Shown piece after piece: positions 54,541 through 61,728 of a DNA stretch of 64,000 nt. The notes beneath the pieces were generated by a model, which made no database searches, was not told where the DNA came from, and saw only the letters and a list, made by a program, of their open reading frames with translations. This stretch comes from Nitrospirota bacterium. Lineage in GTDB: Bacteria; Nitrospirota; UBA9217. The translations under genes were made by a program, and so were the position numbers. Position 1 is the first letter of the stretch. Every line of letters begins with the position of its first letter. The stretch lies in NCBI GenBank assembly GCA_963790205.1, contig CAWBNQ010000001.1:160001-224000 (forward strand), in the 5' to 3' direction.

Positions 54541-55194
54541 TTATTTTTTTCTCAAGAGCACATACAGAGCGCCCAGGCCGCCGTCGCACTGGCGCGCGGT
54601 CACGTAGGCGATGATGTCTTTGCGGAAATGGCCGGACAATCTTCTAACGACCGCGTGCTTCAGCCGGGCGCCCTTGACCGAGCGAAGGCCGCGGCCGTGG
54701 ATGATCTTGACGCAGCTAAAGCCTTTTTTCAGGGAACCAGTTATGAACTCGTCGAGTTCTTCCTCTGCTTCGGAAACAGTGCACCCGTGAAGATCGAGAC
54801 CTGCCTGGACCGAAAACCGCCCCTCGTGCAGGCTCCGGATGATGTCGTCGCGAAACTCGGGATGGATCCACTCGACATACTCCTGCGTGTCCGGCAGATG
54901 GATCGGCTGCAGCCCTTCCGTGATATTTTTCAGTTCCGCAAGCGCTTCCCGATCAGGGTCGCGGGGCGCTGCTGCCGTTTTGCTCGTCCGCGGACGGGGA
55001 GCGCAGGCAAGGGAACGGAATTCCTCGATCACCAGCACGTCGCCCATCTCGCGGCTGAAAAGCTCTTCGTCGGTGTAGTCCTCTTTCTTCTTCTGGCGCG
55101 GAGGCAAGGGCGCAGCAGCAGCCTCGCGCTGCTCCAGTGTCTTGCGGAGCTTGTCAAAAGGACGGACCGAGAATGTCGCCTTCTTATTGCTCAT
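54541..55194 (-). CDS. Smr domain endonuclease
   Basis: LDLHG, IIHGRG, DGGLGALYVLL. Confidence 0.9.
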   Translation of the reverse strand: MSNKKATFSVRPFDKLRKTLEQREAAAAPLPPRQKKKEDYTDEELFSREMGDVLVIEEFRSLACAPRPRTSKTAAAPRDPDREALAELKNITEGLQPIHLPDTQEYVEWIHPEFRDDIIRSLHEGRFSVQAGLDLHGCTVSEAEEELDEFITGSLKKGFSCVKIIHGRGLRSVKGARLKHAVVRRLSGHFRKDIIAYVTARQCDGGLGALYVLLRKK

Positions 55195-55964: not shown

Positions 55965-56168
55965 ATGGATGCTAAAAAGAGTGCCGCTGTCGGGACCAAT
56001 GAGCAGAAGGAGGAGCTGAGAAACATATTGAGTGAAAGTCCTCTCTACCTTGATATGTCGTTTCTTGAGAGAGAGAACTTCGTGCGGTATCTTGCCGCTA
56101 TCTTTTTACATCAGAAACCGGGGGAAGATGCCGTCCTGCACATGGTACGAGAGAGGAGGCGCGTATGA
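55965..56168 (+). CDS. Small hypothetical protein
   Basis: Downstream of the sigma54 site; ATGA overlap with the next ORF. Confidence 0.6.
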   Translation: MDAKKSAAVGTNEQKEELRNILSESPLYLDMSFLERENFVRYLAAIFLHQKPGEDAVLHMVRERRRV

Positions 56169-56350
56169 CACGGTACAGGATCATATGTCCCGATTGCGGG
56201 GCGATCGTTATTACGGAAACCCGTCTCTCTGCTTTATTGGAAAACTGTCCGAAGTGCAAGCACCATATATGGGACATGTATGACGCGCTCCTGGCGGACC
56301 TTTACTCGCCGGAATCAGATGAGGTGGTCGGCCTGAATATGAGGGCCTAG
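56165..56350 (+). CDS. Small zinc-ribbon protein
   Basis: CPDCG...CPKC; AGGAGG SD. Confidence 0.7.
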   Translation: MTRYRIICPDCGAIVITETRLSALLENCPKCKHHIWDMYDALLADLYSPESDEVVGLNMRA

Positions 56351-56467
56351 AAATAAAAGGCGCGCAAGAAGGATGGGTTAAGAAGTGAGAAGTTAAATTT
56401 CATAATTCTTAACTCGTAATTCTTACTTGAGGTAACTCATCCTTCAAACTTCCCCTTCAGCCTTCTG

Positions 56468-56995
56468 CTATGCACCGGTAAGATTTTCCCGTTCATAGGC
56501 CATTACCCGCGCACGCTCCTCCGCCACCGACAGCGATTCAAGGAACTTCTGCATCGCAACCGCGTCAGGAAAAGAGGCCGGGATCAGGGCGTCCGGGACG
56601 CAGACCTTCAGGACCGTCCTCACGAGATCCATCACGCTGAATTCGAGGAGTTCGCGAATTTGATCGGGTTTAGCCCGTTCGAGCCGGAGAGGACGTTCAT
56701 GATACCATCCCTCGCCGTGGGGGGTGATGGGGGCCGAGTCGCCATTCTGCGCTTTTGTCACGCTCATGCCCTGTTTGGCCGCAAACCGGGACACATGCGT
56801 GCGGAGCAGCTGGATCCCCCTGACTGACGGATTGGAGCAGATGCCGCCCTTTCTCCAGGAGAGCCGGCAGAACCGGGAGAGATTGATCCCGCAGCAGAAC
56901 AGGAACCGGTCCCGGCCCGGTCCCGGTTCCTCACGGATCACGACATACAGGAAAGCGTTCTTATATTCGAACGAACGGATCGGCGCGGACTTCAT
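56468..56995 (-). CDS. Hypothetical protein
   Basis: AAAGGA SD; Cys-containing ORF with no recognised family. Confidence 0.55.
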   Translation of the reverse strand: MKSAPIRSFEYKNAFLYVVIREEPGPGRDRFLFCCGINLSRFCRLSWRKGGICSNPSVRGIQLLRTHVSRFAAKQGMSVTKAQNGDSAPITPHGEGWYHERPLRLERAKPDQIRELLEFSVMDLVRTVLKVCVPDALIPASFPDAVAMQKFLESLSVAEERARVMAYERENLTGA

Positions 56996-57078
56996 GATCA
57001 GATTCCTTTCTTTATTAATTGTCACGGTGCGTACCGCAGTATAATAATAAATTCCGGGACGATTCGCAATCTATTTGA

Positions 57079-57387
57079 GACCCTTGATTCCCATCTCCCG
57101 ATTCCAAGCGAGATGGTACGACAATGAGTCTACGCATTCCCCTTGATTCCCGTCTCCGCGGTCATTGATTCCCCTCGCCTGTTTCTCAGTGCGAGGGTAC
57201 TACAAAGCGTCTAAGCCTCTCCTTGATTCCCCTCGCATGTTCCTCAGTGCGAGGGTACTACAAGGAGTCTACGCCTTACCCAGCGAGATGGTACGACAAT
57301 GGGTCTAGGCATCAGATTGAGCAGATTGAGGGTCATGAGCAGATTGAGATTGAGGGTCCTGAGATTGAGGGTCGGGTCTTTACTGTT
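57079..57387. repeat. Array of ~57-bp hairpin units plus stuttered AGATTGAGGGTC repeats ending in GGGTCGGGTCTTTACTGTT
   Basis: TTGATTCCC x4; GCGAG(AT)GG(G)TAC.ACAA...GTCTA.GC x4; GATTGAGGGTC x3. Confidence 0.85.
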
Positions 57388-57985
57388 ACTTCCCGAGCTT
57401 GTACCCCCTATAGCCGCTGACATCCCTGTGGCGCGTCGGATCTTCCTTGTTTTCCTTCTCAAAATCAGCCTTAGCTTCCCTGAGGTCTTTCTCTGACAAG
57501 TCCTTGCCCGGTTTCTGGGTGTCATAGACATAATACGTGGCTTCCCTGATCTCCCTCTTTGCTTCTTCAAGGGTCATGGGAGCATAATGCGTCGTCACAT
57601 TATGGTAGCCTGGGTGTATCGCTTGATCCAGGAAGTATATCCTGCCGGCCTCAAACCTCATGCGCGCCGTATCTTTATTGCCGGCATCGGCGACCAGGTA
57701 ATGCGTACCCGGAACGACAGCGGTCATAAAGTAGCTTTTCCCCTGCGTCTGACCGATCAGCTTCCCGTCGAGATAATTGCTGACTACGGCGCCCCATCCG
57801 AATGACGTTGTCCGTATGATAACCAGCACGGCTTTGTCCGGCTTCGCAGCGAGCGCCGGCTTGGCGCCTTTCGCGATCATGTTCGTCCCGGCAACGCAGG
57901 CGCTCAGAAGAAAGAGCATGGTTACCAATGCAGACCCGAAGGGCCGTTTCGACGGAAACTTCTTCGATGCGGATAGCATGTTCAT
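57386..57985 (-). CDS. DUF2846-like lipoprotein
   Basis: Lipobox LSAC; YLDGKLIG, VVPGTHYL, EAGRIYF; GGGAGG SD. Confidence 0.75.
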   Translation of the reverse strand: MNMLSASKKFPSKRPFGSALVTMLFLLSACVAGTNMIAKGAKPALAAKPDKAVLVIIRTTSFGWGAVVSNYLDGKLIGQTQGKSYFMTAVVPGTHYLVADAGNKDTARMRFEAGRIYFLDQAIHPGYHNVTTHYAPMTLEEAKREIREATYYVYDTQKPGKDLSEKDLREAKADFEKENKEDPTRHRDVSGYRGYKLGK

Positions 57986-58012
57986 GATATTTCCTCCCTT
58001 TCAGACCTGATC

Positions 58013-58138
58013 CTAAGATGTTCCTTTGGATCCGCTTTTTGGTTGTTTATTCTGCTGATCTCTTAGATCTTGCGCGTGTTTGATCTCCTTCTGTTTATGG
58101 TCCTTGTCCTTGTTCTTTTTGCCGCCTTTGTCTCCCAT
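58013..58138 (-). CDS. 41-aa Lys-rich small protein MGDKGGKKNKDK...
   Basis: AAAGGAGG SD a few nt before the ATG; bounded by direct junction repeats. Confidence 0.65.
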   Translation of the reverse strand: MGDKGGKKNKDKDHKQKEIKHAQDLRDQQNKQPKSGSKGTS

Positions 58139-58278
58139 GAAGAGCCTCCTTTGGTGTTGATTGTCATATTTTTGCCTCGAGAACCTCTGTCCTTCATAGT
58201 AAATGCTAGCAGAAGTACGAGCCGAAGGCAAGGGCGAGATAGGCGAGAAGTAAGCTTATCAAGGCAAAAGGGACAAAG

Positions 58279-58473
58279 TCAAACATTAAATGACCCTAAG
58301 ATGTTCGGGCAGTAGGCGTGGCAGATCCAGTTGTAGCGTTTGTTGACATGCTGGAGAGTGTTTAAAAAGTTGATCCGGTCCTGGTCGCTCTTGAACACAG
58401 CCTTCTTTTCATTGCCGCGGGAAGTGATATGATAAACAGCACCGGCGTACTCTATGCGGAGAGGACGGGCCAT
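58279..58473 (-). pseudogene. Truncated Y1 (IS200-like / RAYT-type) HUH transposase
   Basis: MARPLRIEYAGAVYHITSRGN...HAYC; similarity stops just before the expected LM.NH.H motif; promoter TTGACA-N17-TATTTT upstream. Confidence 0.85.
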
Positions 58474-58519
58474 AATGGCTGGAAAATAGCAGGGGAAAAG
58501 GCCAATGTCAACAGTAAAG

Positions 58520-58648
58520 GGGCTGTTGCCCAAACTATTTTTTGTCACCCTGAGCAAAGTGAAGGGTCTGCAATCATATTGTAAATGCGAGATTCTTCGC
58601 TGCGCTCAGAATGACATTTTGGGCGCAAAGTGATTTGGGCAACAGCCC
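58520..58648. mobile_element. 129-bp MITE with IS1182-type ends and 6-bp TSD
   Basis: TIR GGGCTGTTGCCCAA/TTGGGCAACAGCCC identical to the IS at 59447-61045; GTAAAG duplicated at 58514-58519 and 58649-58654. Confidence 0.88.
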
Positions 58649-58652
58649 GTAA

Positions 58653-58959
58653 AGACCTGACCCTGATATGGTTGCTCCCTCGTAAAACCGATCTTCGCGA
58701 AACGCCTGTGGTAATAAGCTCCGTCTCCGCTATAGTCCGGATGCCGGAAAGGATGATGAAACCCTCTTGCCTTCCAGTATCGCACGCCGTCCTCAAGGTA
58801 CGAGATGATTTCCGAGAAGCAGCGTTGCGTATCTATTTTTTGATCGTAGTTTGCATCGAGCCCAAAGAACAAGAATTTGGCAGACGCAGGATCTGCACCT
58901 TGATAGGGTTTATGCGAGAAAAGCTCGTGGAGCTCGATATTTTGATGCCGGGAATACAT
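58653..58959 (-). pseudogene. 3'-truncated hypothetical gene ending at a GGGTCAGGTCT motif
   Basis: MYSRHQNIELHELFSHKPYQGADP...GLDANY; reading runs into the junction motif and MITE (QGQVFTGCCPN). Confidence 0.6.
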
Positions 58960-59093
58960 GCTGTATTTCTTTGAGGCCAATGTCAATATTAAGAACTTTG
59001 CCTTAAGAGGCCTTCTTATATTTCAAGACCTGACCCTAGTGACCTCTATCAGTTCTCACAGCCCAACTTGGCATTTTAATCTCCGCTCTTGAA

Positions 59094-59320
59094 TTAACTA
59101 TTTAATTCCCGTATTCCGGAAGGCGACAACACGGCTAGCTTCATTTTGCCATTGGCACGTAATCTATTGGCTGCCCATCTGACATCATATTGCCACGTAT
59201 AAAACAGATCGCCTGAGCTTCGCAATTCAGTCTCATGGGTTTCTCAAATCCCTTTACATATATCCGCGATTCTTCCTTTGCCTGATACAGCCAATCCTGT
59301 AAGCCAAGACGAGAAGCCAT
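59094..59320 (-). pseudogene. Degenerate small wHTH-like gene (Mrr-N-like)
   Basis: AGGAGG SD + MASRLGLQDWLYQA, then a frameshift and ICKGI*ETHETELRSSGDLFYTWQYDVRWAANRLR with internal TGA. Confidence 0.55.
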
Positions 59321-59446
59321 TTAAACCTCCTTTCTAAACACTACATATAAATAGCTAATAGAGGCAAGAATCAATGAAGTCAGGAGCATTACCCGCGCCT
59401 ATTGATGATCCTGTTTATCTAATAACCATGGGTGTCAAATCTTCAC

Positions 59447-61045
59447 GGGCTGTTGCCCAAAGGACTTCCCGCGAACGATCAAGCGCCTTGATGCGTAAAG
59501 AGGTCTAAGCTAATGACGGGCAATATCGGTTCTGTCTCAAGGGAATATGCAAAATGAGCGATCCGAAAGCCTTTGCCACTGTTCTTTGAACAACGAGCAG
59601 CCGTACCGCAGCTGCTTTCTTCGGCTTGGAAGCATGCGCTATTAGCACTTGCATGTTCTGGATGGCACAGGTCATATATTCCTGGACCCGCATTCGCCAA
59701 AGGCCTCGCCAGCGTGCTTGATCGAAGCCGTATCGGGTGCCCCTGGCAAAGGATCGCTCCATCAGGTGTTGTCTGGTTTTGATGTCGTACCGTGCATTGG
59801 CTGATCGACTGATTGCACGCATGCGCTCCAGAACATTCTGCCGGAGATGACGCTTGATCGTTCGGCCGGACTTGTTTTTCGTGCATTGCTCTCTAAGCTG
59901 GCACGCTGCGCAGACTTTCCTGGGCGCTGCGTAATCCCGGCTTTGTCTGGCTATATGCAGCGACTTCGGCTTGAGCTGAGTTCCTGCCGGGCACATATAG
60001 GAGTCGGTGGCAGGATCATAGGAAAATCTATCTTCCATAAAGATGTCGGTTTTCGCTATGCGATTGATCGCCACGTCTCGTAAATCCGGGATATGCGCCT
60101 TTATGCCCTTGTCATGGCAGGCAAGGAAGTTGTCGATCGTTCCGTACTTACTGTCCGCAACAACCGTTTCGGCCTCGACTTCCGTTGTTGCGTGGTGTTG
60201 CTCAAGCAGCGAAAGCATCAGATGGGCTTCGTTCACATCGCCGGGCGCTACGTCGGTTGCAGTGATGATTTCTTTTTTACCGTCAACGGCCCGATGCACT
60301 TGGTAGGAAAGTTTGGATTTCCCCCGGTTCACCAGGGCCGCGTCCGGGTCGGTGGTGGAGATATAGCGGTTGTTCTTTTTTTCGTAGGTCCTGGAAGGAT
60401 CAGTGCTTTCGGTGCGTTCTTCCAAGCGGGCTTCCAGCTTTTTATAATTTTTGTGCAACTGATGTTTCAGGTTCCGGGTATCGAGAACCGAACTGTTGGA
60501 GGCATTTGCATCCACCAGACTGGAGTCGACGAAGATCTTGCGGCCGTCAATAAGACCGGCTTCCGCGCACTGCAGAACAATACGTTCGAAGAACCTTTGA
60601 AAAACATCGAGGCCCCATTTTTTGCGGGCCTTGGATAGCACGCTATGGTTGGGAATTTCAGAATCAAGGTCATACCCGAGAAACCAGAGCCAATCCATAC
60701 GCTCTGGCAGGGTGTCCATCAGCTCCCGCTCCGAGCGGACATTATAAAAGATCAGGAGTAGCATCAGTTTCAGGATAATTGGTGGTGGCACTGAAACGTT
60801 GCCGTTGTTGCCGTACAAGTCCTTGACTTCGTCATAGGCGAAGTTGAAATCGATCAGCGTATTGACTTTTCTCAAAGGATGGTTCTCACGAACCCGTTTT
60901 TCTATATTGATGCCGATATAGAACAAGCTGCTTTGAGGCGGTTGCTGCAATCCCATCATGGCTATTGGCTCCTGATGTCGTGATTGACGTCGCAGCAATA
61001 TAGCATTACTGAGTGGCTTTCTCAATATCATTTGGGCAACAGCCC
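59447..61045 (-). mobile_element. IS1182-family insertion sequence
   Basis: 14-bp perfect TIRs at 59447-59460 and 61032-61045 enclosing the transposase; no matching TSD. Confidence 0.9.
59505..60959 (-). CDS. IS1182-family DDE transposase
   Basis: HPLRKV, SERELM, PNHSVLS, VDSSLVDANAS, STTDPDA, ADSKYG, CPAG..C..C...C, ERSFA. Confidence 0.92.
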   Translation of the reverse strand: MMGLQQPPQSSLFYIGINIEKRVRENHPLRKVNTLIDFNFAYDEVKDLYGNNGNVSVPPPIILKLMLLLIFYNVRSERELMDTLPERMDWLWFLGYDLDSEIPNHSVLSKARKKWGLDVFQRFFERIVLQCAEAGLIDGRKIFVDSSLVDANASNSSVLDTRNLKHQLHKNYKKLEARLEERTESTDPSRTYEKKNNRYISTTDPDAALVNRGKSKLSYQVHRAVDGKKEIITATDVAPGDVNEAHLMLSLLEQHHATTEVEAETVVADSKYGTIDNFLACHDKGIKAHIPDLRDVAINRIAKTDIFMEDRFSYDPATDSYMCPAGTQLKPKSLHIARQSRDYAAPRKVCAACQLREQCTKNKSGRTIKRHLRQNVLERMRAISRSANARYDIKTRQHLMERSFARGTRYGFDQARWRGLWRMRVQEYMTCAIQNMQVLIAHASKPKKAAAVRLLVVQRTVAKAFGSLILHIPLRQNRYCPSLA

Positions 61046-61728
61046 GTAGATGGATGACCCTGAAGGCGTCGTTGTTCAAAAGCGAGAACGAACATTTCTG
61101 CTTCCTTGCCAAGCTCTCCCTGACGGGCCAATTGGCTTTTTAGTTCTGAAAGTGTGAGCTTTCTCTTCGAGCTCATACTGCTCTCTTTTAGAGAATCTAC
61201 GACCAAAATCTGGAAAAGTTCGGAGGAATTCTGGCTGACGAATAGATTGTTTGATCTTAGTAGGGTATCCCTTTCAAAAAACCCGACCGATATCAACAGG
61301 TTTCTTATGGCAAAGAATCGAAGTGGGATAAGACTTCCCTTAACATAGAAGCAGTTTCTTCCGATATCAAATCTTAAGGCGTCCGGATTGATAAAATCAG
61401 CTATAGCGCCATCGCGCCTCAACGATAGGAAAAGACCTTTAATGAAATCACCCTGTTCAAGGTAATTATGTTGATTATCGATTTTAGCTGGTTCGAAAAG
61501 ATCGGTGTTTATTGAAACGATGTCATCGGATATAGTGATGAATGTCATGAACTCCAGCAGCTTCAACATCCCGACGAAAGATCTACTTATCGAGAAGTGG
61601 TTCGAGGCGCAGTACTTCTTGAGGTCGGATACATTTTGATTCCTGGATAAAGGAAGAGCCTTGAAAATCAAGAACAGTAACTCTTCCTTGCTACCGAGGC
61701 TATCATATTTGAGAAGATCTTCTAACAT
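61046..61728 (-). pseudogene. Gene cut by the IS at the likely start of a DUF3883/NOV-C-like nuclease domain
   Basis: ...LSELKSQLARQGELGKEAEMFVLAFEQRRL, then IS sequence; no continuation found beyond the IS. Confidence 0.6.

Follow-up and report, generated by a model that had tools for sequence, protein, structure and literature searches.

The stretch of DNA analysed here, called the window in the following, comprises 64,000 nucleotides of a Nitrospirota bacterium (assembly GCA_963790205.1, contig CAWBNQ010000001.1, positions 160,001 to 224,000 of the forward strand). Between 57.32 and 59.05 kb it contains a nest of five ends of TIRtrons, elements in which a RAYT-like Y1/HUH transposase gene (TIRYT) lies between terminal inverted repeats (TIRs). 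The GGGTC(A) motifs of this region are the outer part of such TIRs, 20-30 bp in length; the five ends belong to at least three sub-families and surround a transposase stump of 55 codons. The nest has likely been built by repeated insertion of TIRtrons next to or into one another, followed by deletions anchored at the ends, and we regard this reading as a whole as very probable. Coordinates are positions in the window, of which 58306 corresponds to C1:218306; C, G and L numbers denote contigs, relative genomes and extracted loci or contigs, respectively. The genome assembly searched comprises 4.34 Mb, the family comparison 41 genomes (the own genome and 40 relatives).

The identity of the motif follows from intact elements. 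Contig C3 of the same genome possesses an open reading frame (ORF) of 289 aa between perfect 22-bp inverted copies of GGGTCAGGTCTCTTTTGTTGCA. Its product matches Pfam Y1_Tnp (E = 6.5e-14) and NCBIfam REP_Tyr_transpos (NF047646, 95.8 bits, cut-off 80) and displays the sequences NHYHLL and CRYVVLNP, while residues 251-286 are matched by the helix-turn-helix (HTH) models HTH_23 (21.4 bits, cut-off 24.6), HTH_28 and HTH_3, all of them sub-threshold. This protein has nine matches in the genome; inverted TAGGGTCACGTCTTGT... repeats flank the three remaining full-length copies as well as a frameshifted one. TIRtrons are widespread in the bacterial family: a TIRYT match at E <= 1e-40 is present in 28 of the 41 genomes, with up to 18 matches per genome. 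Nineteen full-length ORFs were picked by pattern from the 30 loci returned and the copies of the own genome; 18 of them possess a left end, and 17 of those 18 a right end as well. The intact element consists of a gene of ~286-289 aa, with a Y1_Tnp fold and an HTH-like C-terminal tail, between inverted repeats of 20-30 bp that start with (GGAACnnnTA)GGGTCA(G/C/A)GTCT. The conserved outer extension GGAACnnnTA belongs to the inverted repeat. In most ends the word is (A)GGGTCAS, in some GGGGTCAG or GGGGTCAA (right end of L023, L033, L041).

Eighteen aligned left ends share a single architecture, i.e. GGAACnnnTA, GGGTCA(G/C/A)GTCT, 7-9 nt, TTGAC or TTGCA, 17 nt, TGCTAnnnT or TGATAnnnT, about 7 nt and ATG. 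The left end holds the predicted transposase promoter, with an extended -10 element ~7 nt before the start codon. A preliminary description of this stretch had placed the motif with a Y1 transposase and had credited it with supplying -35 boxes and promoters. The motif is indeed the terminal inverted repeat of that enzyme's gene, and the putative promoters are borne out by the common architecture and by the window copy (10 of 12 matches). A promoter within the left end would explain the -35 boxes behind the motifs, as well as the presence of TTGACATTGGCC ahead of two different genes, which the same description had pointed out; this sequence has three copies in the genome, two of those in the window.

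Reading of positions 56400-60200, the ORF list and a repeat search recovered all five motif sites where they had been placed before under the numbers (1) to (4), the second of which has two copies, (2a) and (2b). Chance occurrence was gauged by the expectation from base composition, by 100 shuffles of the window and by the pattern read backwards as a control. The exact motif GGGTC[AG]GGTCT has 10 sites in the assembly, three within 1.7 kb of the window and four within 3.4 kb of contig C3. With at most one mismatch, GGGTCRGGTCT is found five times in the window against 1.9 expected, a number reached in 4 of 100 shuffles, and four of these five matches fall in 57369-59036. GGGTCA.GTCT occurs 19 times in the assembly, against ~9.6 expected from base composition. 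Family-wide, as column sums over the 41 genomes, GGGTCARGTCT has 324 matches compared with 74 for the backwards control, and its counts are highest in the genomes richest in transposase copies. A profile search with the TIR yielded ~30 sites genome-wide, with clusters in the window and on C3.

Five ends, folded as single strands, do not exceed their shuffles (z -1.1 to +0.8), and REP-like (repetitive extragenic palindrome) or attC-like hairpins were dropped as candidates for this reason. The Rfam search of 56000-60000 gave no match at E <= 1. A sigma-54 reading of GG..TTGCA was also abandoned, as its spacing, judged by eye, is off by one.

Read along the minus strand from 59049 to 57369, the nest contains end (4), the ORF starting at 58959, end (3) with a MITE (a miniature transposable element with inverted repeats) inside, the Y1 stump, end (2b), a 41-aa ORF, end fragment (2a), a lipoprotein ORF and the inverted end (1). 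All five sites align with reference left ends. Ends (3) and (1) form a pair. The outer part of left end (3), GCAACCATATCA-GGGTCAGGTCTTTA (58650..58675, minus strand), cuts the upstream gene and carries the motif AGACCTGACCC at 58653-58663. It is followed by the 131-bp MITE (58519..58649), an IS1182-family derivative with the TIR GGGCTGTTGCCCAAA, flanked by a 4-bp duplication TAAA (58515-58518 and 58650-58653) and present in four further copies in the genome (97-99 % identity). The inner part (58474..58518, minus strand) resumes as CTGTTGACATTGGCC...ATG and carries the predicted transposase promoter, TTGACA-17-TATTTT with a TG extension, the sole strong promoter-like site on the minus strand. 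With the MITE read out, end (3) is an inverted copy of end (1) at 18 of 19 positions (a repeat pair with 16 nt at 94 %), as had been proposed. Both belong to the same rare sub-type (..GGTCTTTACTGTT..), and end (1), GGGTCGGGTCTTTACTGTT (57369..57387, plus strand), is the right-end partner of end (3). It overlaps, as described before, the TAA stop of the lipoprotein ORF. Outside it lies a junction stutter of three copies of (A)GATTGAGGGTC (57323..57368, plus strand), the last one entering the TIR. The two ends enclose 1295 bp, or ~1160 bp without the MITE; an intact element has ~925 bp.

The transposase stump (58309..58473, minus strand) comprises the first 55 codons only and ends before the HUH motif and the catalytic Tyr; a Pfam scan of it gave no match. 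It shares 47 of 55 residues (85 %) with the intact 289-aa copy, and the identity stops at residue 55, just before the repeat copy of left end (2b). That end, GAACATCTTAGGGTCA[5-nt gap]TTTAATGTTTGACTTTG...GATAAGCT (58245..58306, minus strand; profile match C1:218306-218250), cuts the transposase gene. It is of the L029/L031 type (genomes G016 and G012) and lacks GGTCT, with a gap of 5 nt. Its outer border, 58306, is also a breakpoint between strains. The sequence TGA(T/C)CCTAAGATGTTC at 58008-58023 and 58291-58306 is a direct repeat with a spacing of 283 nt; the cut of the transposase at the second copy, previously reported, is corroborated by the end of the identity at residue 55. The first copy belongs to end fragment (2a), GGAACATCTTAGGATCAGGTCT (58003..58025, minus strand), which combines the outer 11 nt of a left end with its first 11 nt and equals the outer 22 nt of a G012-type left end, with one change from the intact G012 element (L031). 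This fragment directly adjoins the ribosome-binding site of the lipoprotein gene, and its TAG is the stop of the 41-aa ORF. Left end (4), GAGGTCACTA-GGGTCAGGTCTTGAAATAT...TTGACATTGGCC (58975..59049, minus strand), is located upstream of the truncated gene and has a short stutter outside; its motif at 59026-59036 is preceded by GAGGTCACTA, in agreement with the motif and stutter copy noticed earlier. It represents a separate sub-type (..GGTCTTGAAATAT..), found at two other places of the genome. Because the sub-types differ, the ends derive from separate elements and are not copies of one site; this suggests separate insertions, not one shuffling array.

The outer border of a TIRtron end is a real rearrangement joint, situated 8-12 nt outside GGGTCA, as a strain breakpoint, anchored partial duplications and stutters demonstrate. 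The motifs had been regarded as recombination joints before; this holds for the outer border and not for GGGTC itself. Contigs of X1 and X2, two sequencing runs of one peat study compared at contig level, differ from the window at 5 positions in 1185 nt (57122-58306; 99.6 % identical) and continue with 217-236 nt unlike the window. The break at 58306|58307 is exactly the outer border of end (2b). Only a 16-nt repeat is common to both sides of the break, too short to mislead a 31-mer assembly. Thirty nucleotides of the variant flank are visible, 27 of which are identical to the start of the Smr-like gene of the window (54541-55194, minus strand), which shares its strand with end (2b) and is located ~3.1 kb downstream of it. 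Among the sequencing runs listed there is none of RNA, and bins 58688-59415 have no cover at >=90 % in X1-X3, which is a gap in the data and no finding.

A DsbA-like gene is represented on contig C3 by two 5' fragments, of 113 and 276 codons; both are joined to ACATCTTA-GGGTCAGG..., after which the next copy follows. In G009 (L027), a 30-codon TIRYT fragment with a near-identical left end, one base off, is located ahead of a full copy. Stutters, here defined as a second occurrence, within 60 nt farther outward, of the 8 nt adjoining GGGTCA on its outer side, accompany 10 of the 36 ends of full-length copies, compared with 6 of 2000 random positions; in the window they occur at ends (1) and (4). 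In the strain, duplication and stutter cases alike, the borders are found 8-12 nt outside GGGTCA. A literature search, with subscription journals outside its coverage, found no paper on rearrangements at TIRtron ends.

As to the origin of these joints, we tentatively suggest that TIRYT ends act as one-sided HUH joints: the enzyme would nick ~10 nt outside GGGTCA, stay on the promoter-bearing left end and ligate it to whatever free 3' end is available, be it of a nascent strand, of an adjacent element or of incoming DNA, with products ranging from stutters of 9-18 nt to kilobase-sized anchored duplications, deletions and promoter-gene fusions. Y1 HUH chemistry is established for IS608 and serves here as an analogy for TIRYT. 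By this analogy, an intact TIRYT from elsewhere in the genome would recognise the repeat, bind to it, cut a single strand 8-12 nt outside GGGTCA, keep the 5' end of the element via a phosphotyrosine link and rejoin it to a free 3'-OH. Rejoining to a nascent 3' end downstream would produce an anchored tandem duplication and rejoining upstream an anchored deletion; very short excursions would leave stutters, and rejoined ends could also give rise to promoter-gene fusions. Under such a nick-and-rejoin scheme, one border would stay fixed while its partner varies, and the lipoprotein and 41-aa genes would have been carried along in a decayed element instead of being cassettes. To our knowledge, no transposition chemistry has been described for a Y1 enzyme acting on inverted repeats, and TIRtrons have so far only been catalogued.

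Several points weigh against the TIRtron nest and the joining proposed with it. The nick, its position and its strand are predictions for the TIRYT family. Two foreign genes and two further end fragments occupy the interior of the pair (3)/(1); since the joins behind (2a) and (2b) are located within the ends, an event anchored at a border does not by itself account for the replacement of the 3' part of the transposase. Logan contigs can be chimeric, even though the repeat at the strain break measures only 16 nt. Open frames of at least 80 codons upstream of 31 metagenomic left ends (those with >=400 nt upstream) show no co-directional bias, with six ends on each strand. Finally, the DsbA copies differ by 4-6 %, and with a flank matching at 27/30 positions on a contig that is otherwise 99.6 % identical, a simple recent duplication in situ is doubtful.

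The divergence of the duplicated DsbA fragments and of the flank leaves some room for a different origin, in which incoming DNA would be spliced at the ends: material taken up from relatives would be joined by the enzyme to resident ends, and the fragments before the ends would be foreign alleles. The DsbA copies, which differ at 13/339, 20/339 and 49/828 nt with many of the changes synonymous, fit this idea, and so does the contrast between the X1/X2 flank and the rest of its contig. However, the left end of the partial copy in G009 (L027) is one base off that of the full copy, as expected from a recent local duplication; just 30 nt of the variant flank are visible, and old duplicates formed in situ would diverge as well. 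We consider splicing of imported alleles unlikely.

Left ends in metagenomes provide a wider view of the decay inferred for the window. The sequence ACATCTTAGGGTCAGGTCT was examined in 41 distinct metagenomic instances for what follows it: a full TIRYT in 6, a broken TIRYT in 12, a TIRYT start cut by the end of the contig in 4 and something else in 15, with 4 instances lying too close to the end of their contig for a verdict. In these contigs, nested left ends, stutters and an insertion sequence (IS) at an identical position are seen repeatedly; an exact search of metagenome contigs with a 24-mer of end (2b) found nothing. That left ends generally cut a co-directional upstream gene was rejected, since the median open run upstream of the 31 ends measures 42 codons for the same strand and 44 codons for the opposite one. 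Among the relatives, G005 possesses a TIR pair (L064) that encloses a cupin-like ORF and a 3' TIRYT stump. Another TIR pair, on contig C3 of G005, was considered as a carrier of cargo and discarded, as it is a TIRYT split by an ORF of the group II intron reverse transcriptase type. At this locus (L063, G005:C3:359500-362000) the TIRYT is broken after about codon 44 by a reverse-transcriptase/maturase-like ORF of 454 aa on the opposite strand, group II intron-like by sequence.

Three genes lie between the ends of the window. The complete lipoprotein-like ORF of 199 aa (57386..57985, minus strand), between (2a) and end (1), belongs to DUF2846 (PF11008, 36.4 bits, cut-off 34.3), and its homologues align up to residue 195-196. 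It was rejected as a regular passenger of TIRtrons, since none of the seven homologue loci (L048-L054) has a TIR nearby. The lysine-rich 41-aa ORF (58013..58138, minus strand) is a conserved small gene: tblastn found it in L015 (51 % over 35 aa) and L014 (71 % over 31 aa), in neither case beside a TIR, and a further homologue is present in L056. The third gene (58606..58959, minus strand) is a 3'-truncated member of a hypothetical family of ~212-220 aa, of which 58669-58959, ~97 codons, are native and the rest is read from TIR and MITE. Full-length forms of 220 and 222 aa exist; 138 relatives were found, none of the 120 listed has a Pfam family, and some relatives are named by their source as Thermodesulfovibrionales or Nitrospirae metagenome-assembled genomes. 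All five loci found in family genomes (window, L055, L056, L058, L059) have a TIR-like sequence near this gene. In G047 a left end is located directly upstream of it, and left ends cut it at different codons in G023 and in the window.

The order of the window recurs in G053, another genus, which possesses the full-length gene, a left end with a TIRYT remnant, the 41-aa homologue with a TIR-like word at its 3' end and a further TIR unit. Part of the window array is old and common to the two genera, and this shared order indicates age rather than active shuffling. Contig C6 of G023 (L013 820-1488) shows a truncated gene of the 212-aa family and a TIRYT stump cut at nearly the codon of the window, followed by what appears by eye to be an AbrB-like/Doc-like toxin-antitoxin pair. 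On metagenome contig L100, a TIRtron left end is located directly upstream of a homologue (MKSAPIRSFEYKNAFLYVVIREEPG...) of the 175-aa ORF 56468-56995, which in the window is the next gene beyond end (1).

The preliminary description had taken the arrangement for an integron-like system of gene shuffling run by a HUH enzyme. Under such capture, each left end with its gene would be a discrete cassette, and the Y1 enzyme would cut out the unit lying between two left ends in direct orientation and insert it anew at a further left end, thereby supplying a promoter. Arrays of direct left ends, each followed by a gene or part of one, do occur in the window, on C3 of the own genome, in G005 and in G009; the ends carry a predicted promoter, 15 of the 41 metagenomic ends precede non-TIRYT sequence, and a strain breakpoint coincides exactly with a left-end border. 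By analogy with IS608-type chemistry, the cutting of two direct left ends would release a circle. Opposed to this, the units end in arbitrarily truncated genes, the ends of the window are of different sub-families, the local transposase is dead, and not one unit was seen to have moved whole. The lipoprotein homologues at seven loci and the 41-aa gene in L014 and L015 do without a nearby TIR, part of the order is conserved in another genus, and the 31 metagenomic left ends have no excess of co-directional open frames upstream. No integrase family was matched by the 8 window ORFs scanned (56468-61728), the rest of the genome not having been searched for IntI, and no folded attC-like site was found. 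With a stump for a local enzyme, at least three sub-families, no whole-unit move and an order shared with another genus, the shuffling claim is not supported, and cassette capture appears improbable.

A nest of decayed TIRtrons also accounts better for the locus than a domesticated regulator, in which the repeats would be operators for a TIRYT with an HTH, host genes such as the 212-aa family, the 41-aa gene and DsbA would join its regulon through solo left ends, and the array would be regulatory and not recombinational: the overlap of the repeat with the predicted promoter, the co-oriented solo ends upstream of several unrelated genes and the TIR-like sequence near the 212-aa family at 5/5 loci are compatible with it, but the numerous copies, broken, nested and interrupted by introns and IS elements, resemble selfish elements, the ends truncate genes, and the strain breakpoint and the stutters are left unexplained, which renders this the least credible of the explanations considered and very improbable.

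Some smaller repeats contain the TIR motif. Mini-pairs of inverted motif copies, 62-78 nt apart from start to start, are present in L066 (G005:C12:213393-213465), G022:C14, G004:C102 and G007:C117; L066, the one pair read, possesses the outer stutter. Such mini-pairs look like REPIN- or MITE-like minimal derivatives of TIRtrons. A unit of TIR (GGGTCAGGTCTCTTTTGTTGCA), ~45 nt (..CTTGAATCTGTAGTTATTT..) and a GC-rich terminator hairpin is found in L001 (4629-4700 and 5651-5722) and L056 (3119-3250); it is conserved between the DsbA junctions of the own genome and another genus (G053) and may represent a short transcript or else a derivative that is small and non-autonomous. A repeat family of ~58 nt with 3-4 units at 57079-57312 has no relation to the TIR motif; each unit consists of a hairpin (e.g. 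CCCTCGC..GCGAGGG) followed by TACGACAATGGGTCTA-like sequence. It has no Rfam match and occurs in 22 bins of 300 bp on 7 contigs, often in short tandem arrays, and also in G005.

The MITE inside end (3) has its parent in a full IS1182-family IS (59446..61046, minus strand; ends C1:219447 and C1:221045), which is situated outside the TIRtron nest. It matches NF033551 with 328.8 bits (cut-off 270), its ends read (C/G)GGGCTGTTGCCCAAA, and insertions are accompanied by 4-bp duplications. Thirty-eight ends of this IS and MITE group have G, T, C and A at -13 to -10 (36, 36, 33 and 28 of 38, respectively), T at -5 and A at -2, corresponding to a strict target, GTCA-N4-[4-bp duplication]-N4-TGAC, with which the TIRtron left ends (GGGTCA-N4-TTnn-N4-TTGACA) agree fully. 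Of 39 IS1182 IS or MITE ends, seven abut a TIR, and the same insertion is present on metagenome contig L072.

The locus and the DsbA array of the same genome offer concrete substrates for biochemistry: a defined end with an outer extension, a predicted cut zone and a natural strain variant broken at the border. Should joining to foreign 3' ends occur, environmental bacteria would have in these ends a new origin of duplicated or truncated genes and of promoter fusions; otherwise the locus is an ordinary burial site of a known element.

The element family had already been named TIRYT/TIRtron for RAYT-like genes flanked by inverted repeats instead of REPs, with a shared TIR word GGGGWSAS and repeats occurring singly, as dimers and in clusters (Di Nocera et al. 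2013, PMC3733652); most TIRYTs were later assigned to TnpA-Y1 subclass 2.1, which lacks REPs and has C-terminal domains of the HTH type (Quentin et al. 2018, PMC6006769). The present elements agree with the available portions of these accounts in the RAYT-like Y1/HUH gene, whose C-terminal HTH matches are sub-threshold here, in flanking TIRs that are not REP hairpins, in a G-rich starting word near the published one and in solo, paired and clustered repeats of moderate number. They differ in this word, which is GGGTCAS and one G shorter than GGGGWSAS, and in features absent from the same portions of PMC3733652 and PMC6006769: the left-end promoter, the conserved outer extension of 8-12 nt, the stutters, the border-anchored partial duplications, the foreign genes between ends and the strain breakpoints.

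With REPtrons (a RAYT plus REP/REPIN), TIRtrons share the protein superfamily, the NCBIfam model REP_Tyr_transpos being passed, a gene bracketed by inverted repeat copies, and a repeat with additional single copies and short doublets (62-78 nt apart). In contrast, the elements described here have no palindromic hairpins, number ~30 copies rather than hundreds, and their gene is multi-copy and often broken, whereas the REPtron gene is single-copy. REPtrons were reportedly described by Nunvar in 2010 and by Bertels and Rainey in 2011.

IS200/IS605 elements (IS608, ISDra2, 'peel and paste') resemble TIRtrons in the Y1 HUH enzyme, in a short conserved sequence just outside the left end and in the absence of a clear target duplication. 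They possess subterminal hairpins, no inverted repeats and a TnpA of ~130-150 aa, whereas the ends here are inverted repeats without hairpins; the intact copy failed the IS200 model NF033573 (17.6 bits, cut-off 55). Integrons likewise are direct arrays of gene units with a recurring site between them and a promoter at the head, but the units of the window are truncated genes and not complete promoterless ORFs, and here a predicted promoter is located in each site. The IS91/ISCR/Helitron group has in common with TIRtrons a HUH enzyme, one fixed end with a variable other border, and the capture or duplication of adjacent DNA. Its members belong to the Y2/Rep-helicase family, their ends are not inverted and capture proceeds past the terminator end, whereas the fixed border described here is the promoter-bearing left end of a TIR element. 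Should the ends prove to be one-sided joints, they would constitute a HUH-driven form of gene capture and rewiring distinct from both integrons and IS91/Helitron read-through.

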